Part shown: piece after piece, positions 9,979 through 59,101 of the stretch
Layout of the letters: each line of letters begins with the position of its first letter
Numbering within the stretch: position 1 is the stretch's first letter
IMG/VR virus record: IMGVR_UViG_3300012001_000010
Coordinates: 6,356 to 70,355 of that record
Direction: 5' to 3' (one strand)
DNA from: a virus
Length of the DNA stretch: 64,000 nucleotides
Made by a program: the position numbers and the translations under genes
The notes under the pieces: model-generated
What the model saw: only the letters and a program-made list of their open reading frames with translations
The model's database searches: none
What the model was told of the DNA's origin: nothing

Positions 9979-10018
9979 GCTGAAAGTTACCCAACCTGAA
10001 TCACTCGGCCACGATGAA

Positions 10019-10046
10019 GATCGGATTGAAACCGACGGTTGACGCG
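10019..10046 (-). promoter_or_regulatory. Putative phage promoter motif A, copy 4
   Basis: GATCGGA-N12-GTTG-ACGCG at the head of the replication operon. Confidence 0.6.
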
Positions 10047-10095
10047 GAAACCTCTAGATATTTTAACGTTTCGCTAAAATTAAGCCCCGTAGGTT

Positions 10096-10128
10096 AAAAG
10101 GCAAAGGTCATAATGAGCTTTGCCTTAG
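10096..10128 (-). repeat. 33-bp palindromic repeat, copy 2 (reverse core)
   Basis: AAAAGGCAAAGGTCATAATGAGCTTTGCCTTAG. Confidence 0.93.
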
Positions 10129-10234
10129 AGTGGGCAAGATAGGTAGCTTAGATAACTTTTCGCATCAACGTATGTGGAGTATGACTTATGCGAAAACATG
10201 GCGACTATAAGGAAGTCAGATTCGCGCGCGCCTG

Positions 10235-10301
10235 GAATTGAATTGAATTGAATTAAGCAATTGAATTGAATTGAATTGAATTAAGCAATTGAATTGCATT
10301 G
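10235..10301. repeat. Tandem (AATTG)n array interrupted twice by AATTAAGC
   Basis: Directly visible in the AT-rich divergent intergenic region. Confidence 0.9.
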
Positions 10302-10461
10302 GGCCGACGAGAAAGGGATGATTTATATTTAGATATATTCTTGTGTTTAGTGGTGTTTTTTTATAGGGATTTTCTTTCTTTGCTTTTCTTGATCGTCCGC
10401 CCTTGTTTTTTCTTTAGGTGCGAGCGTAGTGAGCCTTTGTTTTTATTCAAGGGGTCTGGTT

Positions 10462-10494
10462 AAAAGGCAAAGCTCATTATGACCTTTGCCTTTT
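10462..10494 (+). repeat. 33-bp palindromic repeat, copy 3
   Basis: Exact consensus; lies between two copies of the 20-bp direct repeat GATCGTCCGCCCTTGTTTTT (10391-10410, 10496-10515). Confidence 0.95.
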
Positions 10495-10518
10495 GGATCG
10501 TCCGCCCTTGTTTTTCCC

Positions 10519-10530
10519 TTGGGTATTTCT
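10519..10530 (+). promoter_or_regulatory. Putative late promoter motif B (TTGGGTAWNTCT), copy 1
   Basis: Same motif recurs at 13717, 29353, 57823 and 59157, each upstream of structural genes. Confidence 0.5.
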
Positions 10531-10549
10531 CTTGAGGGGGATTCATGCG

Positions 10550-10942
10550 ATGGCGAAAAAGACGGTCCCGAAGGTTAGGGCAATCCCGAAGGGATTAGCC
10601 CGAGCGTTGATCGAGCGTAAGGCGAGCGCTGATTCTGAGGCGCTGCTTAATGACCTGATCGACGTTTGGGGTGGGACTCGTCGCCTCGCGTTGGATATCC
10701 ACGGCGAGTTCCAGAAGGCGGCAGCGGGCGGCATGACCCGGCAGCGCATTCTGGAAATGATGCAGCGGCTCATCATGAACAACACGAATCACGAGATTGG
10801 CCGGTCTGCCCGCCCTTCGGACTTGACCGATGATGAGCTTGAAACTGTGGCGATGTCTTACATGAAAAAGGTCTCGGGCCATGCCGAAACAACCGATATC
10901 CCCGATCCCGGACCCCCTTCCCCGGAGGAGGGGGAGTGGTAA
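10550..10942 (+). CDS. Putative terminase small subunit / hypothetical protein
   Basis: Helical 130-aa ORF with GAGGGGG RBS directly upstream of terL; PSDLTDDEL C-terminal motif. Confidence 0.5.
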   Translation: MAKKTVPKVRAIPKGLARALIERKASADSEALLNDLIDVWGGTRRLALDIHGEFQKAAAGGMTRQRILEMMQRLIMNNTNHEIGRSARPSDLTDDELETVAMSYMKKVSGHAETTDIPDPGPPSPEEGEW

Positions 10943-13724
10943 GCGGGTTATCACTGGGTCGGTCGCGCCGATCATGTCGCCTCGGGACATCTACCGGCTC
11001 ACGAACCCGATCCTCGACGACGAGCTTGACGACATTAGGGCGAGCATCCCTCCTGTCTTTGACGACCCGACCCGTCTAACCGTCGTCGAGAGTGAGGAGC
11101 TTAAGGGCGTCCTGTACGAGCTTGCCTCGCGACAGAGCGAGTCGCTGAAGATATTCCAGCCGATGATTGAGCAGGAGCGGTTCTTCGCTTCGGACTCTTC
11201 GGAGCGGATCGCGCTCGGCGGTAATCGCGGCGGCAAGACTACGGCGACGGTGATCGAGATCGCCAGGGCGGTGACGGGGCAAGACCCGCACGACAAATAC
11301 CCCAAGACTGATGGCCGCTGTATTCTCGTCGGCAAAGACTTGACGCATTGCTCGAAGGTGTTTTATCAAAAACTCTTCAAGGCGGGTGCGTTCAAGATCA
11401 TCAAGGATGAATTGACAGAGGAATGGCGTACATACAACCCGAACGATCCCGCCGACAAGGCTCGGGCGCATGAGGCGAAGAAAGCTCCAGCTTTGATCCC
11501 GTCGCGGTTTTATGACTTTAAGAAGATCGCATGGGAAAATAAAAAGGATGAAATCCCTAAGACGATCCCGTTAAAGAACGGCTGGACTATCCACTGCTTT
11601 TCGTCGCTCGGTGCCCCGCCGCAGGGGTGGAATGTGGATATGGTCGCGTTCGACGAGGAGATCGAGCATCCCTTGTGGTATCCCGAGATGTCGGCCCGGC
11701 TCCTGGACAACCGCGTTGAAGACCCGGTGACAGGAAAGGTTCGATCGGGGAAGTTCCTCTGGTCGGCCACGCCACAGGCCGGGACTCAGCAACTCTACGA
11801 CCTTAAGGTGCGCGGCGACGAACTGATCGGCGATCCTTCTCCGGCGATCCAGATTTTCGAGTTCGGCATGTTAGACAACCAATGGGTGTCAGACACAGCC
11901 AAAGCCGAGTTCATCGCAAAGTTCCGCGACAATGAGGACGAGATTAACGTCCGTGTCTACGGCAAGTTCGCGCTGTTAGGTACCCGAGTCTACAGCGAGT
12001 TTATGCCGAAGGGCGTTCATGGGATGGCTGACATGCCGATCCCGGAGGACTGGACGAGCTACGCGATCATCGACCCAGGCAGACAGGTTTGCGCAGTCCT
12101 ATTTATCGCGGTCCCACCTCCTCACAGCGAATGGGCTGGTCGGAAGATTGTCTACGACGAGCTTTACATAAAGAAATGTAACGCTAAGATATTCGCCGAG
12201 ACGTTTGTGCGAAGAGTTAATGGTAGGCCGATCGAATACGCAATCATTGACCATCGCGCGGGACGAATCACAGAGATTGGGTCGGGCTTGACTCACGAGG
12301 AACAATACTCGCGGGCGCTCAAGGAGGCGAACTTTAAGTTCGAGAAGGGCGGCACGACGTTCGTGTGGTCGAGCGACGACGTTAAGGCGGGGATCGAATC
12401 GGTGCGGAACGCCTTACACATCATTGATGGGCGCAGCGAGCTTGTTGTGATCCCCGACAAGACGAAACACTTGCTCTGGGAGATCGAGCGGTATAGCTAC
12501 CGTAAGCTCCCGAGCGGCGTCGTTACCGACGAACCGATCAAGCTAAACGACCATGCGTGCTTTGTCGCCGGGACTCAAGTTCTCACCAAGAGGGGCCAAT
12601 TGGCGATCGAGCTTGTCCGTGTCGGCGATATGGCGTGGACAAGGGGTGGATGGAGGAAGGTCGTGGACGCGGCCTGTACGGCTCGCAACGCGAAGGTTAT
12701 GCGGGTGGAGTTCAGCGACGGTCGATCTTTGACCGGAACGTCAAATCATCCAATATTCGTTGATGGCGTTGGGTACATATCCCTTGGTGAGTTGCGTCAA
12801 GGCGACGTGCTCGTGAATCCTTCGGGAGATATCCAATGCCGGGACCAGTCGCAAAGAAAAGTATCGCGATCATCCATAACGGGATCACTTTCAGGAGATA
12901 CCCGGATTCGCCGCGAAGGAGCGATCGTGTCTATTTCAAGCCGCCAACTCGATTGTCGGCACAAGGGGTCGGTCGCTTGCATCAGGAGGTATGGAAAGAC
13001 GCGAACGGCCCGATTCCTGAAGGATTCCACATCCACCACGTTGACGAGAATCCGCTCAATAATTCGATCGAGAATCTTGAGTGCAAGCCTGAATCCGAGC
13101 ATTTATCAGATCACAACCGGAACGTATCCGCTGAACGATCCGATAATCGTCTCGTTCAGCTTGAGCGGATTCGGCCACTTTCCGCCGACTGGCACTCATC
13201 CAAGGAAGGAACCGATTGGCACAGTAAAAACTCGATCTCTATGTGGAAGAATCGGGAATTTTCTGAGCGAAAGTGCGATCACTGCGGCGAGTCATATTCG
13301 TCTCGCGATCGCAAGGCTGCGGGGTTCTGCTCGAACAAATGCAAGTCGGCCGCTCGCCGAGCTTCCGGCGTCGATAACGTCACTCGACCTTGCGGGGTTT
13401 GCGGAAAGCCATTCTCAGTCAACAGATATTCAAAGGTCCGACACTGTTCCCTGTCATGTGGTGTCCGTTCACACCGAAGCGGGCCGTCATCCGGTTTACA
13501 ACCTAACGGTATCGGATCGGCATGAGTATTTCGCGAACGGAATTCTCGTGTCGAATTGCGATTGCCTACGTTACGCCTGCATGGCAAAACTCCGATATGT
13601 TCGACCGAGGAAGCGGAAGGAAAAGCCGGGATACACGACGGTTTGCCTCGAACGGAAGAAGCAGCGGGCGAAGGAGAAGGCGAAAGAGGAATCGGGCTGG
13701 GGAGGCTCCTATAAAGTTGGGTAA
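10881..13724 (+). CDS. terL: Terminase large subunit containing an intein
   Basis: Walker A GGNRGGKT, Walker B VAFDEE, SATP, nuclease IIDPG and NDHA|CD motif split by the intein. Confidence 0.92.
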   Translation: MPKQPISPIPDPLPRRRGSGKRVITGSVAPIMSPRDIYRLTNPILDDELDDIRASIPPVFDDPTRLTVVESEELKGVLYELASRQSESLKIFQPMIEQERFFASDSSERIALGGNRGGKTTATVIEIARAVTGQDPHDKYPKTDGRCILVGKDLTHCSKVFYQKLFKAGAFKIIKDELTEEWRTYNPNDPADKARAHEAKKAPALIPSRFYDFKKIAWENKKDEIPKTIPLKNGWTIHCFSSLGAPPQGWNVDMVAFDEEIEHPLWYPEMSARLLDNRVEDPVTGKVRSGKFLWSATPQAGTQQLYDLKVRGDELIGDPSPAIQIFEFGMLDNQWVSDTAKAEFIAKFRDNEDEINVRVYGKFALLGTRVYSEFMPKGVHGMADMPIPEDWTSYAIIDPGRQVCAVLFIAVPPPHSEWAGRKIVYDELYIKKCNAKIFAETFVRRVNGRPIEYAIIDHRAGRITEIGSGLTHEEQYSRALKEANFKFEKGGTTFVWSSDDVKAGIESVRNALHIIDGRSELVVIPDKTKHLLWEIERYSYRKLPSGVVTDEPIKLNDHACFVAGTQVLTKRGQLAIELVRVGDMAWTRGGWRKVVDAACTARNAKVMRVEFSDGRSLTGTSNHPIFVDGVGYISLGELRQGDVLVNPSGDIQCRDQSQRKVSRSSITGSLSGDTRIRREGAIVSISSRQLDCRHKGSVACIRRYGKTRTARFLKDSTSTTLTRIRSIIRSRILSASLNPSIYQITTGTYPLNDPIIVSFSLSGFGHFPPTGTHPRKEPIGTVKTRSLCGRIGNFLSESAITAASHIRLAIARLRGSARTNASRPLAELPASITSLDLAGFAESHSQSTDIQRSDTVPCHVVSVHTEAGRHPVYNLTVSDRHEYFANGILVSNCDCLRYACMAKLRYVRPRKRKEKPGYTTVCLERKKQRAKEKAKEESGWGGSYKVG
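12558..13556 (+). mobile_element. Intein (333 aa) in terL
   Basis: Block A CFVAGTQV, block B TGTSNHPIF, block F/G VYNLTVSDRHEYFANGILVSN followed by +1 Cys. Confidence 0.93.
12836..13525 (+). CDS. HNH homing endonuclease with C-terminal Zn-finger repeats, nested out of frame in the intein
   Basis: LHQEVWKDANGPIPEGFHIHHVDENPLNNSIENLE...H; CDHCG...FCSNKC and CGVCG...CSLSC; GGGAGA RBS 6 nt upstream of ATG. Confidence 0.9.
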   Translation: MPGPVAKKSIAIIHNGITFRRYPDSPRRSDRVYFKPPTRLSAQGVGRLHQEVWKDANGPIPEGFHIHHVDENPLNNSIENLECKPESEHLSDHNRNVSAERSDNRLVQLERIRPLSADWHSSKEGTDWHSKNSISMWKNREFSERKCDHCGESYSSRDRKAAGFCSNKCKSAARRASGVDNVTRPCGVCGKPFSVNRYSKVRHCSLSCGVRSHRSGPSSGLQPNGIGSA

Positions 13725-39724: not shown

Positions 39725-42700
39725 TCAAGCGACGAACACCGCTTCCATCTCGCCGTGGGCGATCAGGTTGGCGAACATCTTGGCGAGCATCTCGGGGGTC
39801 AACGCCGGGATGACGTAATCGTCGTCGTCATCCTCTTCCTCGTACTTCGACTCGACGACGGGGACGTGGATCGCCAGCTTCGGCGGGACGTAGGCCCGTT
39901 TCACTTCCTTGGGGATCGGCTTCGACTGGCTCTCGATCAGGGATTCGGCGACCATCTGGAGCGGGATCGAGAGGTCGTCGAACGGGCTTGGGATGACGAC
40001 CGGCTTGGGCTTCTTTGGCGCGGCCTTGACCTTGCTCCATGATCGCTGCATGTCGGCACCGTTGATCCGCTCGGAGAGGTTTTTGGCCAGGGCCATCTGG
40101 AGGTTATCTTCCCCGGCCATCGCCGCCAACCCTTCCTCGCTGAACTCGCCTTCGAGGGCCTGCGCTGCCGCCATCTTCTTGCTCATGAGGCTCATCGCCT
40201 TGTGCTGCATGGTGTCACGATAGTACATATAATAGACGCGGCAGTCGCGGGGTTGGCCGATCCGCCAGGCACGGCGGGCGGCTTGCCTCATGGTGAACAG
40301 ATTGTACCCTGTCTCATAAAAGACGATGGTCGAGTAGTTGTGCCCGCCAGGGTTGGGCGAGAACAGGTCGAGGCCCGTGCTCACAAGCTGGGGGTGGGAG
40401 ATCATCACGTCGTAGTCACGACCGTTCTTCTCGATCCACTCCTCGCGCTCGATCGGCTCAACGTCGTTCGCACGGAGGATGCCGACCTTGAGGCCCTCTC
40501 TTTCGAGCAACCCCTTGAGTCGATCCTGGATATTCCTCTTGCCGGTCATCTGGACATAGACCCAGGTCTGCGTCCCATCGGCCTTCTGCTTGAGGCAAAT
40601 GTCGATGAGCGCCTGCTCCTTTGGATATGTCACGTCCTCGGGGAGCGACTTAGGCGTGACGACCCCGGTGAAGTTGTCGATGGTTCGGATGCCGGGCTTC
40701 TCCCAATACCCGACCGTGTGGCCGAGCTTCGGGGGATAGGCGTCAACCTTGACTCCGTGGATTAAGGCGTCTTCCCGTTCGGCAACTGCCCTGTCTAACG
40801 CCTTCTTAACTTCCGGGTCATGATCCCATCCGAACGGGCGATCGGGGTAATCCATCGTCGTCCAGAGGTAAGCACCGAGGAGCTTCATGCTCCCACGGAT
40901 GAGGAGGTCGCGGTTGGCGAGTTCGAGGGTCGCGGTGACTCGTTCGTACTCGATTTTTTGATCGGGTTCCATGTCGCACGCGGTATCGAACCATCCGTCG
41001 CTCGCGGCCTTGCTTCGATCGTCGTCGCCGTGGTCGAGGTTAGGTCCGCCGATATACTCGAACAGGTCGGGTAAGTTGTCGGACACGTCTTCGAGCTTAA
41101 TGAACATCGAACTGCCGATCATGTGCCTCCCGAACATCGTCGGCATAACGCCTGGCCGCACCACTTTACGTTCGGATCGTGAACCGCTCGACGCCCGCCG
41201 CATCGACTTGACGTTGCCGCCAACCGATGGCCCGTCGTTGCCCTGCTCTTTCGTGGTGATAATATGGTCGATCTTGCCATACGCCTCAGAGAAGGCCATA
41301 TCCTTGCCCCACTCGAACCCTTCTTCCTTGAGGCTATTCGGCGTGATCCTCATCATCAAGGGGAAGAGATGGTTGGCATAGCCGCCGATGATCGTGCCGG
41401 TCATCGCGAGGACATGATCGACGCCCGCGAGGAGCTTGCCGCAGGCCATCGACTGAGCGCTCTCGTCGCTCTTCTGCTCTTGACATTCGTCCACGATCAA
41501 GTAACTGAACATCCGCTTGAGCTTCTTCTGGACGAGCCGGGCGAGCGACCATCGGTACGGTCGGCTCGTGTAGTTGTACATCGGCTCGCCGCAGACCTTG
41601 ATGACCCATTGGCGATTCTTCCATGTGAATTGAACGTCGGGCTTACGCTCGGAGAAGTCGAGCGGAACCGGGCAGAGCCGGTCGCGACCGTGATCCTTGG
41701 GCCGCTCGGCGGTAGGGATCATCTCCATGTAGGTTCCGATGCACCGTTCCTGTTTCCCATCCTTGTTGGACTTCCCGTTCCTCAGTTTGGCAGACAAACT
41801 CTTCTCGGCAAGCGGGACGCCTTTCTTGTCTCGGGCTACCGTGCCGCACTTCGGGCAGCAGAAGACACGGCCGCTGACGTTATCCATCAACGGCTCGCCG
41901 CGATCACTGTAGATCGGACGGCCACGTTCGTTCAACTTCGCGATCTTCTCGACAACGACGCTCTTGCTCGCGGGACTCTTCTCGGACACCTGGCCGTTGA
42001 ACCCGCGATGCAAGTCGCCGATCCCGGTCCAGTCGGACAACCACTTGGCCTGGTTCCGGCCGATGACGTACCACTCAGCCCCCTTCGGCTTCTCCCATCG
42101 GTTGCCCGATCGCTTATCGAGGAGTCCGATCATATCCCGGAGCGACCGCTTACTGTTCGTGTCGACCTTCTCGGCCTTCTTACCCTTGACCTTTTTAACC
42201 TCGGTCTCGCCGCCTTGCGGGCCGAAGCGGGTGACGATCGCCCCTGGGATCGTGCCCTTGATTTCCCTCACCCATTTAGCGATCAAGTGGTCGGGACAAA
42301 GAGCGATCGCCCGGTACTTGCCGCCTTTACCGCCCTGATTTCGCGATCGCTGGGCATGCTTATGGATCGCGGTCATTCCGAGGAGCGTCTTTCCCGTGCC
42401 CATTTCGCCGCAGATGAAGCCGCTGTTAACTTCATCCATCATTTTAATCGTGGCCGCGATGACGTGCTTTTGGGCCTCAAACGGCTCGCGGATCATGTCG
42501 TCGAAGTCGGGCAACTCGTCGCGGCTGGGCAGGTGGAGCGGGTCGAGCGCCGTGATGGCCTTCTTCCCGAGGATGGAACCGTAATTTTGCAAATACTGAT
42601 CCATCGTGGTGATCTCGCTGATGGGCAAGATCGCCTTCGGCGGCTCAATCGTGGTGATGTCTGTGTCGTCGCATTCCATAGTAGGTTCAGTCCTGGATCG

Positions 42701-42727
42701 TGGTGGGATTAAGTAGGAGGTTGGCAC
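39725..42727 (-). CDS. SNF2-like SF2 helicase/ATPase with inserted Zn ribbon
   Basis: GEMGTGKT, VDECQE, MTGT, TGLDL, QAARRAWRIGQ. Confidence 0.88.
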   Translation of the reverse strand: MPTSYLIPPRSRTEPTMECDDTDITTIEPPKAILPISEITTMDQYLQNYGSILGKKAITALDPLHLPSRDELPDFDDMIREPFEAQKHVIAATIKMMDEVNSGFICGEMGTGKTLLGMTAIHKHAQRSRNQGGKGGKYRAIALCPDHLIAKWVREIKGTIPGAIVTRFGPQGGETEVKKVKGKKAEKVDTNSKRSLRDMIGLLDKRSGNRWEKPKGAEWYVIGRNQAKWLSDWTGIGDLHRGFNGQVSEKSPASKSVVVEKIAKLNERGRPIYSDRGEPLMDNVSGRVFCCPKCGTVARDKKGVPLAEKSLSAKLRNGKSNKDGKQERCIGTYMEMIPTAERPKDHGRDRLCPVPLDFSERKPDVQFTWKNRQWVIKVCGEPMYNYTSRPYRWSLARLVQKKLKRMFSYLIVDECQEQKSDESAQSMACGKLLAGVDHVLAMTGTIIGGYANHLFPLMMRITPNSLKEEGFEWGKDMAFSEAYGKIDHIITTKEQGNDGPSVGGNVKSMRRASSGSRSERKVVRPGVMPTMFGRHMIGSSMFIKLEDVSDNLPDLFEYIGGPNLDHGDDDRSKAASDGWFDTACDMEPDQKIEYERVTATLELANRDLLIRGSMKLLGAYLWTTMDYPDRPFGWDHDPEVKKALDRAVAEREDALIHGVKVDAYPPKLGHTVGYWEKPGIRTIDNFTGVVTPKSLPEDVTYPKEQALIDICLKQKADGTQTWVYVQMTGKRNIQDRLKGLLEREGLKVGILRANDVEPIEREEWIEKNGRDYDVMISHPQLVSTGLDLFSPNPGGHNYSTIVFYETGYNLFTMRQAARRAWRIGQPRDCRVYYMYYRDTMQHKAMSLMSKKMAAAQALEGEFSEEGLAAMAGEDNLQMALAKNLSERINGADMQRSWSKVKAAPKKPKPVVIPSPFDDLSIPLQMVAESLIESQSKPIPKEVKRAYVPPKLAIHVPVVESKYEEEDDDDDYVIPALTPEMLAKMFANLIAHGEMEAVFVA

Positions 42728-50142: not shown

Positions 50143-50889
50143 TTAGTTCCCGATAGCCTTTCGGCCGTTGACCTTGCCGCCGATGGCACGATTGAGATTG
50201 AGCGACTTGCCCGCTTCATATCCCGCCCGGAGTGTATTCTTGTCTCCTTCCAGTTTAGAGAAGTGAGCTTTGCTCGCGGTTCGACTCGGATGCTTCTCGT
50301 GGAAAGCGATCTCGGTTTCCTTGTTGACGTTGACAAGGGCCAGTGCGGTGCCGCCGCTCGAACCACTCGCAATGTCCCGCTCGATCTCGATAACCTCACG
50401 CTCGTCGCGGAGCTTCTCGGTGAATCCTTTAGCGAGACCGGCGACGTAAAGCCGACGTTCCGAGGCAGGTTGACCGTTGATGATCTTGTAGTTCGTCCAG
50501 AGCCGATCGAATGCCGCATGGAGTGCGTTCCATGTCCACTTGGCGACCTGGACATTGGAGTCCTTTCCGAAGAACACGAGAGTCTTCGGCCCTGCTATAG
50601 TCGATTTTGTGAATACGCCCTCAATGAAGAAGAATTCCTTGACGATCCCGTAGACGAGATTGTTCTCCAGCGACCATTTGCCCGTCTCGAAGACGTTCTG
50701 CTCATCCCAGTCATCGCCGCCGCTGGCCGACTTAACCTCATCTATGCTCAGGTTGTGTTCAGCCATCATGCGGGACGCCATCGCGAAAGCCGTCTCGGCC
50801 TCGGATGACGTGCAGTTGTTGCGCTCAGTCCTCTCAAGAATCTTGCGGACCTTCTCGATCACGTCTGCCTTGGGTCGTTCGTCGTTCAC
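50143..50889 (-). CDS. DUF2786-domain protein
   Basis: VIEKVRKIL...EAETAFAMASRMMAEHNLS; AGYEAGKSLNL end. Confidence 0.8.
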   Translation of the reverse strand: MNDERPKADVIEKVRKILERTERNNCTSSEAETAFAMASRMMAEHNLSIDEVKSASGGDDWDEQNVFETGKWSLENNLVYGIVKEFFFIEGVFTKSTIAGPKTLVFFGKDSNVQVAKWTWNALHAAFDRLWTNYKIINGQPASERRLYVAGLAKGFTEKLRDEREVIEIERDIASGSSGGTALALVNVNKETEIAFHEKHPSRTASKAHFSKLEGDKNTLRAGYEAGKSLNLNRAIGGKVNGRKAIGN

Positions 50890-50903
50890 ACAGTTCTCCT
50901 TTC

Positions 50904-50953
50904 GGCCTCATCAGGTATGGATTCACCACACAAGCCCCGAAGGGCTTTCGGCC
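50904..50953 (-). ncRNA. Hammerhead ribozyme type II (HH1)
   Basis: GGCC GAAA GCCC-UUCG-GGGC UU^ GUGUGG-UGAAU-CCAUAC CUGAUGA GGCC. Confidence 0.88.
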
Positions 50954-50959
50954 TTGGAT

Positions 50960-51556
50960 TTAAGCGCTTCTAAGGCGGCAGTAAAAGACGCTGTAGAAAT
51001 CCCCACTTTGGCCTCGCATCGGGTTTGAGGTTCGGATTCGCCATCGCGATCCATCCGCCGAAGTATAGTCGTCCGTGTGGATATCCTTCGCCATAGTGTC
51101 ATCGGGTGTATATTGAACGAATTTAGGCGTGGCCGTATACTCTTCCCCCGTGACCGAGAAGGTTTCGTAAGGCTGAAATGTATCCCTGATATCAACGGGA
51201 AGTTGCGACTCTGGGATATCGGAATCCACCCTTAAGTCTGGCATCTCGGCCCCGATCGTCGGCTTATTGACTCCGACGATCGACTTGTCATCCGTCTTGA
51301 TCGTCACGGATTGCTGGAGCTTCACCATGTCGTCGCATGCGTCGATCAAGTTGCGAGCCAACGCAGACAGCATTGTGATACCGCCGAACACGCGAAGCTC
51401 CCTAATCTTAGGCGTACTGTCTACCCCTCCTTTGTTGTCAGGAAAATAGTGACGCTCGGCGACGATGATGACCATTTCGCAAGTCGCTTCCAACCTGGTT
51501 GGATCATCTTGCGGCATGAGGAAGAGGTTCCTCGCGGAACCGATAACCTGTAACAT
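50960..51556 (-). CDS. Hypothetical protein
   Basis: GGGAGA RBS downstream of HH2; MLQVIGSARN start. Confidence 0.6.
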   Translation of the reverse strand: MLQVIGSARNLFLMPQDDPTRLEATCEMVIIVAERHYFPDNKGGVDSTPKIRELRVFGGITMLSALARNLIDACDDMVKLQQSVTIKTDDKSIVGVNKPTIGAEMPDLRVDSDIPESQLPVDIRDTFQPYETFSVTGEEYTATPKFVQYTPDDTMAKDIHTDDYTSADGSRWRIRTSNPMRGQSGDFYSVFYCRLRSA

Positions 51557-51577
51557 TCTTCTATCTCCCGTAATATT

Positions 51578-51629
51578 GGCCTCATCAACATGGTATACAA
51601 CCACGTACCTGCTTACAACAGGTTTCGGC
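51578..51629 (-). ncRNA. Hammerhead ribozyme type II with U3 core variant (HH2)
   Basis: GCC GAAA CCUGU-UGUAA-GCAGG UA^ CGUGGU-UGUAU-ACCAUG UUGAUGA GGC. Confidence 0.75.
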
Positions 51630-51635
51630 TTTATG

Positions 51636-51785
51636 TCACATCCAGCCTCGAAACCTGTTGTAAGCAGGTACACACTCTGGATTACGCTTCGCCTCACGCC
51701 GCTCCCGGCGTGCCTTCAATTTCTTATGGAAACCACGGCAACGCAGATTGAATCCTTGGCAATCAGCTTTGACACATAGCGACAT
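51636..51785 (-). CDS. 49-aa basic Cys-containing peptide (below the ORF-track cutoff)
   Basis: GAGGA RBS; MSLCVKADCQGFNLRCRGFHKKLKARRERREAKRNPECVPAYNRFRGWM. Confidence 0.45.
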   Translation of the reverse strand: MSLCVKADCQGFNLRCRGFHKKLKARRERREAKRNPECVPAYNRFRGWM

Positions 51786-51844
51786 GGGCTTATCCTCGTG
51801 TCCCGGTTTAGTGTGGGTGTGCGTGTGCGTGTGAACCGACAGTC

Positions 51845-52102
51845 TTAGCGGTTGGGCGACAATTCAGTGACGCTCGCGAGTTGCCGGAACGAATGAGGGG
51901 TTGCGAGTCCTTCATCGGGAGTCTCAGTGACGTACTTCGCGAGCATCTTTGTCCGTGCCCTCATGAGCGCCTGTTCGCGGCCTTCGCATCCGACCTCGAT
52001 CACACTGATTCCTTTGAACGTGACCCGATAGCGGACGATCCGGGCCTTGACGCGGCGGGCATTCTCCATCGAACCGAGATAGCGTTCCATCATTGCGCCC
52101 AT
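51845..52102 (-). CDS. Hypothetical protein
   Basis: AGGAG RBS directly after HH3. Confidence 0.6.
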   Translation of the reverse strand: MGAMMERYLGSMENARRVKARIVRYRVTFKGISVIEVGCEGREQALMRARTKMLAKYVTETPDEGLATPHSFRQLASVTELSPNR

Positions 52103-52122
52103 CGTTGTAGCTCCTGGTTTGT

Positions 52123-52174
52123 GGCCTCATCAGGCACCGACCTACGGTGCGACCCCTTCCTTGGGGTTTCGGCC
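52123..52174 (-). ncRNA. Hammerhead ribozyme type II (HH3)
   Basis: GGCC GAAA CCCC-AAGGAA-GGGG UC^ GCACCG-UAGGU-CGGUGC CUGAUGA GGCC. Confidence 0.93.
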
Positions 52175-52483
52175 TTAGTCGATCCGGTTGTTTAGCGAGT
52201 GCTGCTCGGCCAGATTCATCGCCGCCGCGATCTTGTCCGCTGTATTCTTTGAGACGACGCGAACAAAGACGGTCTTCCTGTTTCCTGTTTTTCCGGTTGC
52301 CTTCATAGTGTTGACAGCGACTTCGACGACCGCGAAATTAAGGTCCGGCCTAGGGGTAGTCCCGCTGGTCGTTCTCAGCTTAACTAGCGTGACTCCGATT
52401 GAGTCGTCTTTCCTCCCGTCAATAACTTCGTAACGTCGCGCTGTCGTAAAAGGAACGGTTTCGTGATTCTTCTTGGCGTCCAT
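52175..52483 (-). CDS. Hypothetical protein
   Basis: MDAKKNHET start, bracketed by HH4 and HH3. Confidence 0.6.
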   Translation of the reverse strand: MDAKKNHETVPFTTARRYEVIDGRKDDSIGVTLVKLRTTSGTTPRPDLNFAVVEVAVNTMKATGKTGNRKTVFVRVVSKNTADKIAAAMNLAEQHSLNNRID

Positions 52484-52511
52484 AAAAATCTTCCGTAGTA
52501 AGAGTTGATAT

Positions 52512-52563
52512 GGCCTCATCAGTGTGGGAGAAACCCACATACCCCTTCCTTGGGGTTTCGGCC
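52512..52563 (-). ncRNA. Hammerhead ribozyme type II (HH4)
   Basis: GGCC GAAA CCCC-AAGGAA-GGGG UA^ UGUGGG-UUUCU-CCCACA CUGAUGA GGCC. Confidence 0.93.
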
Positions 52564-52569
52564 TTGATT

Positions 52570-52821
52570 TTATCCGAGCATATCGTCCTCGTCGTCCTCG
52601 TCATCCTCGGCCGCGATGATCTCTTCGAGTCGATGAATGATCTTCGACATTGATTTCTCGTATCCAGCCTTGATGATCTCATCAAGCTTCTCTCTTGCTT
52701 CGTCGTAGTCGGAGTCGACCGTATCCCAATCGACGACTATAAACTCGGGGTCGCATCCAAACCCAGTCGTCTCGGTGACGACTCCTCCCTCGACCTCAAC
52801 AACGATGTATTGCTTTGCCAC
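52570..52821 (-). CDS. Small highly acidic protein
   Basis: IVVEVEGGVV...VVDWD; EDDEDDEDD tail. Confidence 0.65.
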   Translation of the reverse strand: MAKQYIVVEVEGGVVTETTGFGCDPEFIVVDWDTVDSDYDEAREKLDEIIKAGYEKSMSKIIHRLEEIIAAEDDEDDEDDMLG

Positions 52822-52867
52822 GATATTGAATCCCCTGTAGTGTTTCCACGTTTCGATAAAGGTACTC

Positions 52868-53140
52868 TTAGATCACGATTCCGAACCTTGCGCGGTGTTT
52901 CAATTCCTCGAACTTGGAGCAGAGTGCGTTGACCAGTACCCGGCACTTAAGCCAGAGCACTCCCGTATTCTCCTCTCCAGTGATAAGAGTCGATTCGCTG
53001 TAATTATGTTCGCCGTCTTGATGCTTGATCGTGACCCAGACTCCCGCGTCCGTGTAGTGGCAATCCATCTCCGGGCGATCAAGCATCGTGTTGATCGCGG
53101 AGATAGCGCGGGAGGCCGCAAGTTCCTGATTGGCTTTCAT
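52868..53140 (-). CDS. Hypothetical protein
   Basis: AGGAG RBS; 90 aa. Confidence 0.55.
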   Translation of the reverse strand: MKANQELAASRAISAINTMLDRPEMDCHYTDAGVWVTIKHQDGEHNYSESTLITGEENTGVLWLKCRVLVNALCSKFEELKHRARFGIVI

Positions 53141-53173
53141 TCCTTGGACTCCTGTTTGTGAGGATAGAGTAGG

Positions 53174-53476
53174 TCACGTAAAGAAGCTCTCTACGTCCTT
53201 GCGGTTAAAATCGTGGATATCAATCCATTTAACCGTTTGACGATGCTCGATAAACGATTCAACGAGCGATGAGCAATCATTGATAATTTCGTCTTGACTT
53301 AGATTCAAGGCGAACGCCGATTCAACGGAAAACTCCCTTTGGTGTCCATCGTGAATCTCGGCATGGATAATCCTGACGATGACACTTCCGTTTCGTTTAA
53401 AAGTGTAAACGAAAGGATTGCCAATCTTTGACTTGACGAACTCGATCGCTAAACGAGAGATGTCGTGTTCTGTCAT
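53174..53476 (-). CDS. Hypothetical protein (AT-rich)
   Basis: MTEHDIS start after AGGA. Confidence 0.5.
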   Translation of the reverse strand: MTEHDISRLAIEFVKSKIGNPFVYTFKRNGSVIVRIIHAEIHDGHQREFSVESAFALNLSQDEIINDCSSLVESFIEHRQTVKWIDIHDFNRKDVESFFT

Positions 53477-54328: not shown

Positions 54329-54457
54329 GATCCGTCTAGGACGTGCGGGAGGATCATTGCGTGTCGTTGCCGTAAAAATCCCCGTTCGATCCCGTATAGG
54401 CCCAAGGATCGGGCGGGGATTGCATGCAGTCATGCAGGCTCATTTCGAGTAGGCATG

Positions 54458-54492
54458 AAAAATCAACCCCCTAGGCATTACCTAGGAGGTTG
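54458..54492 (-). terminator. Intrinsic terminator
   Basis: CAACCUCCUAGG/CCUAGGGGGUUG stem followed by AUUUUU on the minus strand. Confidence 0.6.
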
Positions 54493-54618
54493 TCTTATCT
54501 TCCGATTCCATTTCGTTCCCGTTTGGTTGTTTCTAGGGGACGCATCCCCCAGGCCACCCGTTCGCGGTCCTTCCACCCGTTTCGTTTATGTCCGGGTGGA
54601 AGGCTTGCGAACGGGGGA

Positions 54619-55635
54619 TTAACCCGCTTTGGTCGTGATGAGAGCGTTGTCGATGACCTTGAGCATCTGATCCAGCGTGTCGCGAAGGACACGCATTTCG
54701 GAGACCTTGCCCGCTGCTTGCAGACCTTGTGCGAGCATGCGAACGTCGTTCTTGGTGCAATTCTCGATGTCGAAACCGCCGACGACGGGCATCTCAAGGT
54801 TGTGGAGCTTGAGAACCTTGGCGGCAATCTCGGCCACATCGGCGGGAGTTGCATGATCCGTGTCGAGCGCTTTGGAAATGGCGTCCGAAATCTTCGACTG
54901 GGCAGCTTCCTTGTCGGCGCGGAGCTTCCGATCCGCGACCTTAGCCGCAGCGGCGCTGATCTCTTCCGGGGTCTTAGCCTTGCCGCGAGATTCCTTCTCG
55001 GCCGCGATCTTAGCCTTCTCGGCGTCGATAGCGTCATTGAGTTCCGCGATCGACAAGGGGAACTTGCTCAACTGGCGATCGACGTAGCATGCCGCGAAAC
55101 CGATCCAGCCCTTGCGGATTTCTCCGGTAAGGGCTTCGGGATCGAATTCGAGCATTGGCAGGAAGTTGTGGTAAACCTGCCCGTAAGGCATGTCGTCCAC
55201 ATTCGCGACCATCGGCCGGACGGCTTCGATGAACAAGTGCATGCGAATATACTTGTCGAACTCAACCGTCTTGATGGCGATCCGGCTCTTGACGAGCAAC
55301 TCGCAGTCGTCGCAGACTTTCTTCAAGTCCTTGACGCCGTTCCACGATCCAGCCTTGAGACTCGCCTTGCGGCGATTCGCCAGCTTAAGCGCGTGCTTGC
55401 CGAGCTTCGCGTACTTCTTGAGCTTGTCCTTCGGGTCAAGGGTATCGGCCGCGAGGGTGACGAGTTGCTCTTCATCCTTGCCGTAGCCGATCTGCTCGGC
55501 CACGAACTTCGGATCGGGCTTCAACGAATCCTCTTCGACGGGGGGGAGACCCTTGGCGTCGTCGTCCATCAATTCGGCCTCGATAACCGTGGACCCGCCG
55601 ACGTACTTGACAAGTTCCGTGCTGTTGGTGAACAT
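54619..55635 (-). CDS. First gene of the leftward early block, helical Lys/Ala-rich protein
   Basis: 338 aa from MFTNSTEL; strong codon bias. Confidence 0.65.
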   Translation of the reverse strand: MFTNSTELVKYVGGSTVIEAELMDDDAKGLPPVEEDSLKPDPKFVAEQIGYGKDEEQLVTLAADTLDPKDKLKKYAKLGKHALKLANRRKASLKAGSWNGVKDLKKVCDDCELLVKSRIAIKTVEFDKYIRMHLFIEAVRPMVANVDDMPYGQVYHNFLPMLEFDPEALTGEIRKGWIGFAACYVDRQLSKFPLSIAELNDAIDAEKAKIAAEKESRGKAKTPEEISAAAAKVADRKLRADKEAAQSKISDAISKALDTDHATPADVAEIAAKVLKLHNLEMPVVGGFDIENCTKNDVRMLAQGLQAAGKVSEMRVLRDTLDQMLKVIDNALITTKAG

Positions 55636-55641
55636 GGTACT

Positions 55642-56450
55642 GGCGTTCCGTTCTCTTGACGGAATGCCGCCGGAGTGGGGGATGCTTGTCGCATCCCTCA
55701 CTCCACTTGCTTTCCCGGATATGACATACCCGATCAAAGCTTGCGGCAAGTGGATCATCGGAGAGTTGCACTCCGATATCGACTTCGCCTCTGCATCACG
55801 ACCAAACTAGTCCAGCGTTGTCACGATCGGCACAATGCCGACACGCTTGGCTAGCTTGGATATGTTGCAACGAACATTAGGCCACGACCGCCCTTTGCAG
55901 GCGACTAAGGAGAGAATTACACTCTCCATTCCGTTTTATGTTACGGTCGTTTAGAACTGGCCTAACTATGTCACAATGGAAACCGGCATGCCGGAACACC
56001 ATTGCATTATCCAAATGCTGACGAATCGTTTCGGCGAGTTACAGTAACGAGTTACGTCGTTACGTGAGGGAGTTTCGCCCTCTTTGACTTGCCTACCCTG
56101 CGATTGTCGCGAACCATTTCAGGCTCTAGCTTTGTTCCTAGTCATTCCATCGCGAGTGTACAGGTACACAAACGCGAATCAGACTCCATGAACATTTGGA
56201 CTACGTTTTTTCTTCCCGATCCGAGCAAGGCGGTTTGTTTCGTGTCTCGTTTCCTTCCCAGTGTAGGGGATGAATCCCCTAGGCCATTTCAGTCCGCACC
56301 ACGATCCGTACCGCTTTAGGCGGGTTTTCGTGGGCGGGTTAAACTCGGCCACTAAAAGTTAGTGGCACTACCCTAGGCACACTGGCCATTGTGGGCTTGC
56401 GTCCGGCGGGTCTCATTAGGCCCGTCTGACACTCCAAATCTAGGCCCCAC
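55642..56450 (+). ncRNA. Candidate large structured non-coding RNA (or ssDNA structure)
   Basis: Dense nested inverted repeats, no credible ORF, G-U wobbles mostly on the plus strand. Confidence 0.5.
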
Positions 56451-57205
56451 AAACCAAACGTCAAATCAAAATGGCAAACCGCTTGAAACGTGTTTATAAA
56501 AAGCAACGCTTACAAGTGTGGATACTATAACGGCGCACGCGCACGCCTATGTACGCGCAGGCGCACGAGATTTTGCCCCAAAAACCAAGTGTCCAAATCT
56601 CGCGCATGCGCCTGTTTCATTACTGGAAAAAATCAACACCTGCCTGCCTGCCTGCATAGGCACGCGAATAACGGGCGCGTTAGTAACTAAGGCGTGCATA
56701 CGCGGAGAACTAAACGCGTGTAAGGGGCCTAGGGCTTGCTCTAGGGCATGGTAAGGCTAAATTTTGCGGCGAGCCTACGGCGTTTAGGGTACAGGTGGAC
56801 ACTAGGGGACAAGCGGATAGTTAACCCTCGGGCGTAGGCGTATACGCGCACGCACGCGGGATGCTTAGTGGGCAATCGTATAGTAGGTGCAGTTAGTTAG
56901 TGGGCAAATGCTAAGTTAGTGGGTTTAAGTATAGGTAATTTAAGAGGGTAGTGTTCGTAAGAGCAGTTAAAATTAAGAGGATTCAAGCAATGAATATATC
57001 GGCAAATGCTTATCTGTCAGTGAGAGGCACCATAATGAGTACCCTAACCCTATACCCTGCCAGGGGTTATGGCGACACCCGCCGAGTCCCCCCAATTCAA
57101 AAACTTCGCGGGCTAACCTTCACAGCCTGGAATTTTTTAACCCTGGGGTAATTTGCCCCTATCCGCCCCTTCCTTATATATAGGGACCATGTAGGCACCT
57201 AAGCT

Positions 57206-57238
57206 AAAAGGCAAAGGTCATAATGAGCTTTGCCTTTT
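57206..57238 (-). repeat. 33-bp palindromic repeat, copy 8 (reverse core)
   Basis: AAAAGGCAAAGGTCATAATGAGCTTTGCCTTTT; flanks shared with copy 5. Confidence 0.95.
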
Positions 57239-57291
57239 GAGGGGCCTTAAATTTAACGGGCGGAAGGAACGCCCGAATCCGGCATGGATGC

Positions 57292-57708
57292 TCAGGTCTT
57301 AAATCTCATCTTGGCCGGTACAGATACTGCCTGCGTCGATGGATATGAGAGATTCTTAAGGATCGCGATCATCTTGACTTGATTCCGGTTCAGCTTCTCA
57401 AGGAGCCGTTCTGTCCTCGCCATGCTCTCCATCTGCTCCCGCCGCCATGAGTCGTGCATCTGAAGAGGCTTGAGGCCGACATGATCCTCTTCGGACTGGA
57501 TCGACCTTCTGCGGTTCTCGCTAGCAACCCAATCCTCGAACCATTTAACCTGAGACATCGCGGTGATCTTACGCCGACGAGACATAGGTAGGGTTCGCAT
57601 TGCGGCTCTAAGGAGCGGCAGTCCCGAAAGTTCGGGCTTGGAACGCTGGATGTCTATCGCTTCCTTGGCGACCAGAGCCTTCTCGGGGTCGGACCAGAAG
57701 ACTTTCAT
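57292..57708 (-). CDS. Hypothetical basic protein (possible DNA binder)
   Basis: 138 aa; WSDPEKALV start. Confidence 0.55.
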   Translation of the reverse strand: MKVFWSDPEKALVAKEAIDIQRSKPELSGLPLLRAAMRTLPMSRRRKITAMSQVKWFEDWVASENRRRSIQSEEDHVGLKPLQMHDSWRREQMESMARTERLLEKLNRNQVKMIAILKNLSYPSTQAVSVPAKMRFKT

Positions 57709-57822
57709 GGATCATCCCTAATTGGATTGAAGCGTGGATAATATCATGCAAGGTTAACCAGCTAATTAAGCCCATGTCAACACCTTAATATAAAATCACA
57801 CCATCCATTGATCTTATGGAAG

Positions 57823-57834
57823 TTGGGTATCTCT
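57823..57834 (+). promoter_or_regulatory. Putative late promoter motif B, copy 4
   Basis: TTGGGTATCTCT upstream of the scaffold gene. Confidence 0.5.
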
Positions 57835-57889
57835 AAGGTAATGGAATGCGTATTCATGCCTTGAGCGACACCCTTTATCCGAGGATCAG

Positions 57890-59101
57890 ATGCGTCGTAA
57901 ACTTAGACTGCCGAATGTCATGTATCGTTTCCTCCTCGACGTGGACGGCGATCCGTTCGGCGGTGCTGGTGGCGGAATCCCTGCCAGCCCGCCCCCGGCC
58001 GCTCCGATTGCCGAGGATATCGCCCCGGTTAATGGCGGTCCCGATCGCGGGTTAGATGAAGGCTTGTCGGGTGTCGGCGACACGTCCGCTCCTAATCAGG
58101 GCGGAAATCAGCCTGCTCCGGTTCGCGCCCAACCAACCGATCCGAACAATCGGGCCGGTTCATTTAACGCCCCAGTCGCTCCGGTCGCCGGTAACGATTG
58201 GCAGTCGATCCGCGATGCGGGGACCGCGATCGGCTATCAGTTCCCGGCGAACATCACCGATGACCGCGCCGCGCTCACACACCTAATCCAACTTGCGCAG
58301 TCGAATCGCAACGCGGATATGTACGCTCAGCTTGGCCGGAAGCTCGCGCCGAACGCGGAAGGTATTCAACAGTATCTCCAGCAAAAGAGCACGCCTGCCG
58401 CGCCGAGTCGTCAGCCATGGGAAGCTCCCGAGTTCGACGAACGATGGGCCGGACTGGTCGAACGTAATGAGGCGACGGGAATCTTTGTGTCGAAGCCCGG
58501 CGTCCCGCATGAGATTGCGAACAAGGTTAACGCCTATGTCGAGTGGAAGTCAGCTTACGATCGCGACCCAGCGAAGATGATTAACGGGATGGTCGAGGCC
58601 CGAGCTAAGACGATCGCCGAATCGACGTTCCGTGAACAGTTCCAGGCACAAGCGCACGAGCAGACGATCAACTCGATCGTCCAGGGTAATGGGACTTGGC
58701 TGTATCAAGTTAACGAGCAGGGCCAGAGGGTCGCCGATTATAACGGCCGTCCAATGCTCTCTCCGCTCGGTGCCCGTTATATGCACCACCTGGAAGGTGC
58801 GAAGAACATGGGGGTTCGCGATCCTCGTCAGCAAGACGCCTTGGCTAAGAATCTCGTCCGTGGCGAGATTGCCCAACAGGCACAACATCAGGCGTGGGCA
58901 GCAAATCAGGTTCCCGCGAATCCGCAAGCGGTGGCGAATCCGAACCGAAACCCGCTCCAGGCGATCCCCGCCGTACAGAGGGCCAACACTCCGGGGGCCA
59001 CTGATCCGTCAGCCACAGGTAAGAGTCTTTCGGAGATGCTCCGTGAGGGGTTTGCCGCCGAAGGCGTCAATGATAGCGATTTCGCGCACAGGAACGACTA
59101 A
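57890..59101 (+). CDS. Putative capsid scaffolding protein
   Basis: Disordered Pro/Gly N-terminus, helical core, SLSEMLRE tail; directly upstream of the MCP. Confidence 0.6.
   Translation: MRRKLRLPNVMYRFLLDVDGDPFGGAGGGIPASPPPAAPIAEDIAPVNGGPDRGLDEGLSGVGDTSAPNQGGNQPAPVRAQPTDPNNRAGSFNAPVAPVAGNDWQSIRDAGTAIGYQFPANITDDRAALTHLIQLAQSNRNADMYAQLGRKLAPNAEGIQQYLQQKSTPAAPSRQPWEAPEFDERWAGLVERNEATGIFVSKPGVPHEIANKVNAYVEWKSAYDRDPAKMINGMVEARAKTIAESTFREQFQAQAHEQTINSIVQGNGTWLYQVNEQGQRVADYNGRPMLSPLGARYMHHLEGAKNMGVRDPRQQDALAKNLVRGEIAQQAQHQAWAANQVPANPQAVANPNRNPLQAIPAVQRANTPGATDPSATGKSLSEMLREGFAAEGVNDSDFAHRND

Follow-up and report, generated by a model that had tools for sequence, protein, structure and literature searches.

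A hairpin-rich stretch ahead of the leftward early genes in an uncultivated soil phage, a possible untranslated 5' leader

The window analysed here, a stretch of 64,000 nucleotides (nt) corresponding to bases 6356-70355 of the 70,355-bp IMG/VR virus record IMGVR_UViG_3300012001_000010 (CheckV completeness 100%), belongs to an uncultivated tailed phage from soil. Its genes are read from the plus strand at ~10.9-39.3 kb and from the minus strand at 39.7-55.6 kb. Beside the latter block lies a gap poor in open reading frames (ORFs), 55636-57291 (~1.65 kb), and the left half of this gap, 55642-56450 (809 nt), is the subject of this analysis. The stretch is directly upstream of a minus-strand gene for a protein of 338 amino acids (aa) and adjoins its start; further to the right, a small minus-strand ORF and a plus-strand gene for a 403-aa protein border the gap (Table 1). 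The original prediction, made from the letters alone, had described the 809 nt as a densely base-paired, non-coding candidate for a large RNA. The nearest named relative of the phage, and the nearest that can be cultured, is a prophage of the planctomycete Singulisphaera sp. GP187 (loci L009 = L015 = L021), and comparisons were made with 11 related loci, comprising this prophage as L021, seven metagenome or IMG/VR loci (L020, L023, L019, L018, L016, L017, and L022) and three further prophages (L030-L032).

Both strands of the stretch fold better than their dinucleotide shuffles. The minimum-energy folds have -316.1 kcal/mol on the plus strand (z -9.27) and -314.7 kcal/mol on the minus strand (z -5.56), and none of the 20 shuffles used for each strand was as good; the excess that this check had been proposed to look for is real on both strands. 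Since real sequence usually folds somewhat better than shuffles, a stricter control was drawn from the same phage, with 93 other 809-nt segments of its first 37 kb and with GC content regressed out. In this control, the stretch was found at -3.1 standard deviations (SD) on the plus strand, where one of the 93 segments was more extreme (an intergenic gap at 10126-10934), and at -3.6 SD on the minus strand, where none was. The segment at 10126-10934 is part of a gap upstream of the terminase gene (9721-10934), which is the other place with a strongly folded 809-nt segment, on the plus strand (-3.2 SD), its sub-blocks having z scores of -2 to -3.

The excess is unevenly distributed, falling mainly in 55636-55971, and there it is equal on both strands: z scores are -5.8 (plus) and -5.5 (minus) for 55636-55911, -5.8 and -5.9 for 55792-55971, and -4.06 and -3.54 for the multibranch domain 55858-56013 (200 shuffles), while 55620-55980 reaches -7.96 on the minus strand (100 shuffles). 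Further to the right, 276-nt blocks of 55912-56463 give z scores of only about -2, and 56464-57015 has no folding excess. Three domains of the right part, with borders drawn from the plus-strand fold, which favours structure, have z scores of -3.5/-2.1, -4.5/-4.0, and -4.25/-0.15 (plus/minus), the last being the domain 56386-56521, which folds on the plus strand only.

All stems listed in the original prediction are present at or near the places given for them (Table 1). Most are simple local hairpins, and they differ from one another in sequence. The further claim that G-U pairs mark the plus strand did not hold, as the minimum-energy folds contain 23 G-U pairs among 253 on the plus strand vs. 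27 among 262 on the minus strand, and 59 vs. 56 over the whole gap. The observation is real but narrower than originally put, and it carries no strand signal.

Table 1. Features of the folded stretch, the remainder of the gap and its surroundings (positions are those of the window; z scores refer to dinucleotide shuffles)
Feature	Position	Strand	Remarks
First long gene of the leftward early operon	54619-55635	minus	338 aa as called; last long ORF of the minus-strand block
Spacer downstream of the 338-aa gene	54434-54618	minus	185 nt; extremely folded, more so on the sense strand
Three strong hairpins beside the start of the 338-aa gene	55636-55758	minus	z -5.5 (plus), -5.6 (minus), 40 shuffles; may be the last piece of the 5' leader or else, with ATG 55758 as start, encode the first 41 residues of a protein extended at its N-terminus
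Stem	55642-55651/55659-55668		10 nt, 90% complementary
Stem	55672-55704		14 bp, 9 of them G-C
Stem TCCACTTGC/GCAAGTGGA	55702-55710/55746-55754		
Stem ATCGGAG/CTCCGAT			present
Core of the folded region	55759-56018		hairpin 55792-55869 and multibranch domain 55858-56013 (nested 8-, 7-, and 6-bp helices, side hairpin)
Multibranch domain closed by GGAUA...UAUCC			encloses TTAGGCCA 55877 / TGGCCTAA 55958, ACGACCG/CGGTCGT, GGAGAG/CTCTCC, and CAATGG/CCATTG
Stems GTAACGA/TCGTTAC and GCCACTAA/TTAGTGGC			both present
Right part, moderately folded	56020-56521		domains 56020-56108, 56109-56250, 56258-56385, and 56386-56521
Stem TAGGGGAT/ATCCCCTA	56264-56281		
23-nt hairpin module TAGGGGA-loop-TCCCC-AGGCCA	56264-56286	plus	repeated at 54534-54556, in the spacer on the other side of the 338-aa gene
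Sigma-70-like promoter candidate TTGACG, 16 nt, TAGATT	56437-56464	minus	9/12 matches; at the right edge of the stretch, pointing into it
Four iteron-like direct repeats TTAGTGGG...	56802-56934		an AT-richer stretch comes next; GC 0.46
Second sigma-70-like promoter candidate CTGACA, 16 nt, TATATT	56993-57020	minus	gene-sense; 10/12 matches
Single-copy motif TAACCTTCNCNNCCNGGNNTTTTT	57114-57137	plus	within a ~160-nt block to which conservation of the gap in relatives is confined
Palindromic repeat	57204-57250		16-bp stem flanked by A and T runs; just downstream of the minus-strand ORF 57292-57708
Small conserved ORF, right border of the gap	57292-57708	minus	138 aa, basic; possibly helix-turn-helix
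First plus-strand gene right of the gap	57890-59101	plus	403 aa

The stretch has little room for genes. Its six frames contain 8-17 stops each and no frame is open across it, the longest open stretch having 83 codons, so that its description as non-coding stands for most of its length; only the leftmost 60-120 nt (55636-55758) may be coding. Small ORFs in the gap were considered as genes and rejected, as none of the eight tested had a Pfam family at a meaningful E-value and tblastx gave no support.

The position of the stretch is shared with relatives. The 338-aa protein, for which no Pfam or PHROG family was found, has 20 homologues, counting the window's own, and the syntenic ones are encoded in L021, L020, and L023, where the gene order is the same: the 338-aa homologue on the minus strand, an ORF-poor gap, and the 403-aa homologue on the plus strand. 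When the 320-360 nt upstream of the gene were folded in the gene-sense direction (100 shuffles each), z scores of -7.96 in the window, -4.23 in L020, and -3.11 in L023 were obtained. The leaders of two of the three relatives are thus folded, though their sequences are unrelated to that of the window by blastn, tblastx, and a covariance model.

Folding as extreme as that of the stretch is also found on the other side of the same gene. For 54425-54630, z scores are -8.52 on the minus strand and -5.56 on the plus strand (200 shuffles), and the spacer 54434-54618 alone has -8.29 and -3.64 (30 shuffles). This spacer contains a 23-nt inverted repeat as well as a 13-bp hairpin with a U run just before the next gene. 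Given this folded spacer and the 23-nt module that it shares with the stretch (two matches in the window vs. none in 100 shuffles), hairpin-rich untranslated RNA would flank the 338-aa gene on both sides. Among the other intergenic gaps of the phage, 12 of the 15 tested have z scores above -3.5 on both strands, which makes strong folding a particular property of this gene's surroundings. Furthermore, a perfect 13-nt inverted pair (54628-54640 and 55794-55806) brackets the gene, one arm lying in its last codons and the other in the leader; with up to one mismatch allowed, at least two matches were seen in one of 100 shuffles.

The sequence itself is not conserved. No match of 55636-56450 to the 11 related loci was found by blastn or tblastx, and a covariance model of 55858-56013, which as a single-sequence model has limited reach, found only itself in the 147,624 bases of the window and these loci. 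Closer comparison was possible with strain X2, assembled from a second soil run of the same study into low-depth contigs and ~92-96% identical (from differences per contig piece); X2 covers 55959-56392 of the stretch and parts further right, 55300-55958 with the most strongly folded part being outside its coverage. There are 29 listed differences in the gap, 28 of them found in X2 and one (55685) in X1, the run of the source sample, and a further 29 in 55300-57900 are unlisted. On the plus-strand fold, 11 of the listed differences fall in loops, six still allow a wobble pair, 12 disrupt a pair, and there is no compensatory change. As 18 of the 29 are at paired positions and the fold of the gap (1656 nt, 510 pairs) has ~62% of its bases paired, pairs are not spared, and the comparison gives nothing in favour of a conserved fold. 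X2 also has 21 inserted letters in the hairpin 56304-56324, skips 184 nt (56432-56615), and carries 42 different letters in place of 56905-56979, so that close strains differ in the length of the right half of the gap. In sum of family and conservation, the stretch is a real statistical outlier and an orphan.

The interpretation that we prefer, at a probability of roughly 45%, is that the 809 nt are a lineage-specific, hairpin-rich untranslated 5' leader of the leftward early operon, acting in cis on the mRNA. The transcription of the region, its strand, and the roles of the hairpins are what we infer here. The whole control region would be untranslated and ~1.5-1.65 kb long, from 55636 (or 55759) to 57291, and the 809 nt would be its hairpin-packed part. 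Transcription would start further right, at the host-type promoter candidates 57020-56993 and 56464-56437; alternatively, the RNA could arise by read-through from the small ORF 57292-57708 past the putative palindromic terminator. The transcript would then run leftward through ~12 independent stem-loops and end in the strong hairpins touching the start codon. Such hairpins may pause or attenuate transcription, shield the RNA from nucleases or mark it for processing, or occlude the start region of the 338-aa gene, and the individual stems would be specific to the lineage and replaced quickly. If the early mRNA is indeed their target, the leader would stand out among folded leaders by its length and density, and would have stayed folded despite turnover of its sequence. 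We know of no work on gene regulation in this phage group, although we made no search of the literature for it.

Candidate promoters for such a transcript were sought with a sigma-70 consensus, which is applicable because the rrn promoters of the relatives' hosts are, by reading of the alignment, sigma-70-like themselves (TTGACC ... TATTAT). Between 55400 and 58000, both matches are on the minus strand and none on the plus strand. With the gaps of L021 and L020 scanned as well, there are four matches, all of them in the gene-sense direction (57020-56993 and 56464-56437 in the window, 6642-6615 in L021, and 4627-4599 in L020).

Several observations weigh against a leftward leader. First, the gap of L021 has no excess folding (z -0.5 to -1.8, and -1.4/-1.2 in another test). 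Second, both strands of the stretch fold about equally and their G-U pairs are balanced, so that nothing in the sequence singles out the minus strand, and perfect Watson-Crick stems would equally fit palindromes acting at the DNA level. Third, the minus-strand hairpins have no U tails, and all four terminator-like sites inside the stretch are on the plus strand. Fourth, the promoter candidates are no more frequent than in shuffles (two vs. 2.8 in the window, one vs. 0.8 in L021, and one vs. 1.9 in L020), the shared orientation of all four has a chance probability of ~1 in 16, and the candidate 56464-56437 lies within the stretch skipped in X2. Fifth, on the minus-strand fold, 13 of the 29 listed strain differences are in loops, three pairs are kept by wobble, 13 are broken, and none is compensatory. 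Finally, the three runs listed with the sequence are all DNA contigs from one soil study, none being RNA.

Known leaders resemble the proposed one in part. Like the lambda nut, HK022 put, and rrn-style boxA leaders, the stretch is rich in stem-loops and would be located between early promoters, here candidates, and the first long gene of an early operon. In the early leader layout of lambda, the gene N for a small basic protein and the terminator tL1 lie just upstream; here too, a small basic protein gene and a putative terminator are found just upstream. The stretch differs in being far longer than the nut and put sites, in having no match to a boxA consensus, and in lacking a two-hairpin module conserved among relatives. 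The RNase III processing and stabilising hairpins of T7 early mRNA, and intercistronic hairpins in general, are likewise separate, stable stem-loops in the untranslated portions of a polycistronic early mRNA, and here such stem-loops are predicted on either side of a gene; about 12 hairpins in one leader are unusually many. An antitermination leader of the boxA/rrn type was considered and rejected: the consensus GYTCTTTGRCAAT, which was read from the rrn leaders in the genomes of two hosts of related prophages and may not be that of this phage's host, has no match with up to three mismatches in 55636-57291, and its occurrence window-wide is not above chance (44 vs. 37.9 expected).

A more far-reaching version, which we consider improbable, is that in this phage group a large, fast-evolving RNA scaffold is built around the first long early gene, with a multi-hairpin leader of 0.35-0.8 kb and a trailer as strongly folded that share modules (54534 and 56264), together with the 13-nt complement, and with selection acting on the folded state and not on the sequence. 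Such selection would account for the strongly folded leaders of unrelated sequence in three of four lineages, and the scaffold, if it exists, might act as a cassette for processing or stability, or else as a sensor that sets the timing of early gene expression. A wider leader-trailer duplex around the gene was tried and rejected, as its RNAduplex energy is unremarkable and 25 of 59 other segments pair as well; only the 13-mer stands.

Among the explanations that compete with an untranslated leader, the first is that the hairpins act in DNA or not at all: they could be protein-binding palindromes or palindromes of replication or recombination that form part of the adjoining operator- or origin-like region, or else the stretch may be a fast-evolving palindrome-rich spacer, possibly one made of remnants of small hairpin repeats such as the eight-copy palindrome and the 23-nt module. 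We regard this as unlikely. The stems are almost wholly Watson-Crick and fold equally on both strands; yet the nested helices with internal loops and the multi-way junctions look like RNA and not like operator palindromes, and as the stems all differ in sequence, they are not sites for one protein. The phage does have other hairpin repeats (the eight-copy palindrome and the two-copy 23-nt hairpin), the gap also contains iteron-like repeats and a conserved single-copy motif, and the cumulative GC skew has a low plateau at 53-59 kb. The turnover in X2 looks neutral and 55636-56450 is unconserved in relatives, but L020 and L023, whose sequence is unrelated to it, are folded at the corresponding place just before the homologous gene, which suggests selection for folding, and the neighbouring spacer favours the sense strand. 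What is solid is the folding excess in 55636-55971, mirrored in the spacer 54434-54618; the reading of the stretch as a plus-strand RNA resembling GOLLD or ROOL is unsupported.

That reading belongs to the second competing explanation, a free-standing, lineage-specific structured non-coding RNA (ncRNA) of ~0.35-0.8 kb with a function of its own, encoded on either strand; in one variant, a plus-strand RNA directed toward the iteron-like, AT-rich region would act there as a pre-primer or regulator. We think it improbable. The Rfam 15 models, which cover large ornate RNAs, ribozymes, group I and II introns, and riboswitches, and which presumably include GOLLD and ROOL, gave no match at gathering score in the whole window, in agreement with the original remark that the stretch could not be assigned to a family. 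With E-values up to 10, only noise was obtained in 55400-58000 (mir-2450, 17.3 bits vs. 59; ncRv12659, 14 bits vs. 209), and neither hammerhead nor other small self-cleaving ribozymes were found there. ARAGORN identified no tRNA or tmRNA genes in the window, whereas GOLLD and ROOL both often adjoin tRNA genes in phage or prophage DNA, as stated in PMC5737381. The stretch is like these RNAs in its size class of several hundred nt, its many helices and junctions, and its phage or prophage setting. Their complex folds combine multistem junctions with pseudoknots and show covariation among many members. The stretch differs in the absence of meaningful Rfam matches just described, of neighbouring tRNA genes, and of conserved homologues or covarying pairs in the loci compared, and in consisting mostly of simple local hairpins.

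The idea of a free-standing plus-strand RNA of GOLLD or ROOL size is unsupported: the sequence has no strand signal, its G-U pairs are balanced, no plus-strand sigma-70-like promoter was found in 55400-58000, and the window has no tRNA. Some features nevertheless speak for an ncRNA: the nested multibranch domains have z scores of -4 to -6, 56386-56521 folds on the plus strand only, the four terminator-like hairpins inside the stretch are all on the plus strand, and wobble keeps six plus-strand pairs vs. three minus-strand pairs among the listed strain differences. A plus-strand RNA could stop at the putative two-way terminator (57206-57238), and the iteron-like repeats with the AT-richer stretch (56802-57015) would lie downstream. 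On the other hand, 12 plus-strand pairs are broken in the strain comparison, with no compensatory change and no sparing of paired sites, X2 has letters inserted into one hairpin and a skip at the right edge, and neither an Rfam family nor a copy in the related loci was found. The proposal of a new class fares no better. The search for homologues and covariation yielded no alignable homologue and no compensatory change among the 29 listed differences, no second member was seen in the 11 related loci, and the close strain shows no structure-preserving pattern; since a class needs more than one member and neither homologues nor covariation were found, there is no ground for calling the stretch a new RNA class. 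The RNA II pre-primer of ColE1 and transcription-activated phage origins are similar in that a strongly folded, several-hundred-nt RNA, here a predicted one, lies beside an origin-like region; unlike for ColE1 RNA II, no plus-strand promoter, antisense partner, or sequence relation was found here, and the region is origin-like by sequence only.

The last explanation, that part of the stretch is coding, either through a start of the 338-aa gene at ATG 55758 or an in-frame GTG/TTG or through a short gap ORF being a small gene, is very improbable and would account for at most ~120 of the 809 nt. For the longer gene, in which hairpins 1-3 would lie within the first 20-41 codons, the minus-strand frame is open up to ATG 55758, from where the protein would have 379 aa. 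Just upstream of the called start, the sequence SR(E/Q)RNAS, followed by NST..Y..GS, is common to the window and the Singulisphaera prophage (L009) despite synonymous codon differences (TCA/TCG, AGA/CGT for Arg, and AGT/AGC), and in the prophage no start codon is seen, by reading of the sequence, between SR(E/Q)RNAS and the conserved N-terminus. However, the stored protein P0070 is called at 338 aa, the N-termini of the 17 other aligned homologues are unrelated or short, and the composition of the extension looks unprotein-like on reading of the translation; for the small genes, the eight gap ORFs have no meaningful Pfam family and 55636-56450 no tblastx match.

The rest of the gap contains further features that could belong to a control region. 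The iteron-like repeats, where no folding excess is found (z +2.2 plus, +1.1 minus), are probably sites for a DNA-binding protein, at an operator or origin. At the same relative position of the Singulisphaera prophage (L009 ~4620-4880), many GTGAGTG repeats are seen by reading of the sequence. Both sets of repeats may be bound by a DNA-binding protein particular to the lineage, such as one acting at an origin or operator. Similarity of the gap to relatives in blastn and tblastx is confined to ~57015-57175 and the small ORF. The motif TAACCTTCNCNNCCNGGNNTTTTT within this block is present in the window (one match vs. 0.02 expected) and in three prophage relatives (L021 5999-6022; L032 2367-2390, minus strand; L030 4523-4546), and might serve as a cis site, for example as promoter or operator. 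Its place in L030 is different, behind plus-strand genes that look structural.

The palindrome at 57204-57250 looks, from its sequence, like a two-way intrinsic terminator. It is one of the eight places in the 70-kb genome where this palindromic repeat (33-47 nt) is found, the other seven being at 7253, 16450, 16817, 22854, 43768, 49523, and 56192 of G000:C1. A different palindrome, the near-perfect 22-nt TTTATCACCTGTCAGTGATAAA, is found in the Singulisphaera prophage (L009 5752-5773 = L021 6752-6773) between a divergent small ORF and the 405-aa gene; it is operator-like, although the scan lists it as a terminator-like stem, and a related half-site, CTGTCAGTGA, is located near 57017-57026 of the window (both by reading of sequence). 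The small ORF at the right border of the gap has 52% identity to L009 5209-5601 and tblastn matches in L016, L017, and L032. PHROG matches of its protein all had E > 0.07, and Atlas scores were all < 0.9, with weak structural matches pointing to Myb- or HTH-like domains, which are leads only.

The relatives of the phage are prophages of the order that includes Singulisphaera (Planctomycetota), together with soil relatives. They were collected by several scans. In IMG/VR, the 403-aa protein led to the Singulisphaera prophage (L009), and the alignments A1, A2, and A3 led to it again as well as to L022 and L023; scans with the 338-aa protein alone and with the helicase gave no match in IMG/VR, and scans with two DNA motifs had this prophage, already found, as their sole match. 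One scan each of genome contigs and metagenome contigs gave L015 (the same as L009) and L016-L020. The 403-aa protein is present in four of 121 genomes of Singulisphaera's order and in two of 401 genomes sampled phylum-wide, and has 67 matches in the protein collection, including the window's own, which are mostly metagenomic. No match to GenBank phages was found by blastn in distant mode with 55600-57900. Closer relatives were seen as proteins only: P0002, from a 14-kb contig, has 69% identity to the 403-aa protein, and P0071 (64%), P0072, and P0074 have 57-64% identity to the 338-aa protein.

Elsewhere in the window, an SNF2-type helicase is encoded at 39725-42727. In 50500-53200, Rfam at E up to 10 gave one weak type III hammerhead (52453-52547, minus strand; 19.4 bits vs. 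a cut-off of 48.5), and a perfect long hairpin at 51605-51671 was flagged as a microRNA precursor, an artefact of its long stem. The large terminase (10881-13724), a Terminase_6N / phrog_2 protein, contains an intein with Intein_splicing, PT-HINT, and Hint_2 domains.

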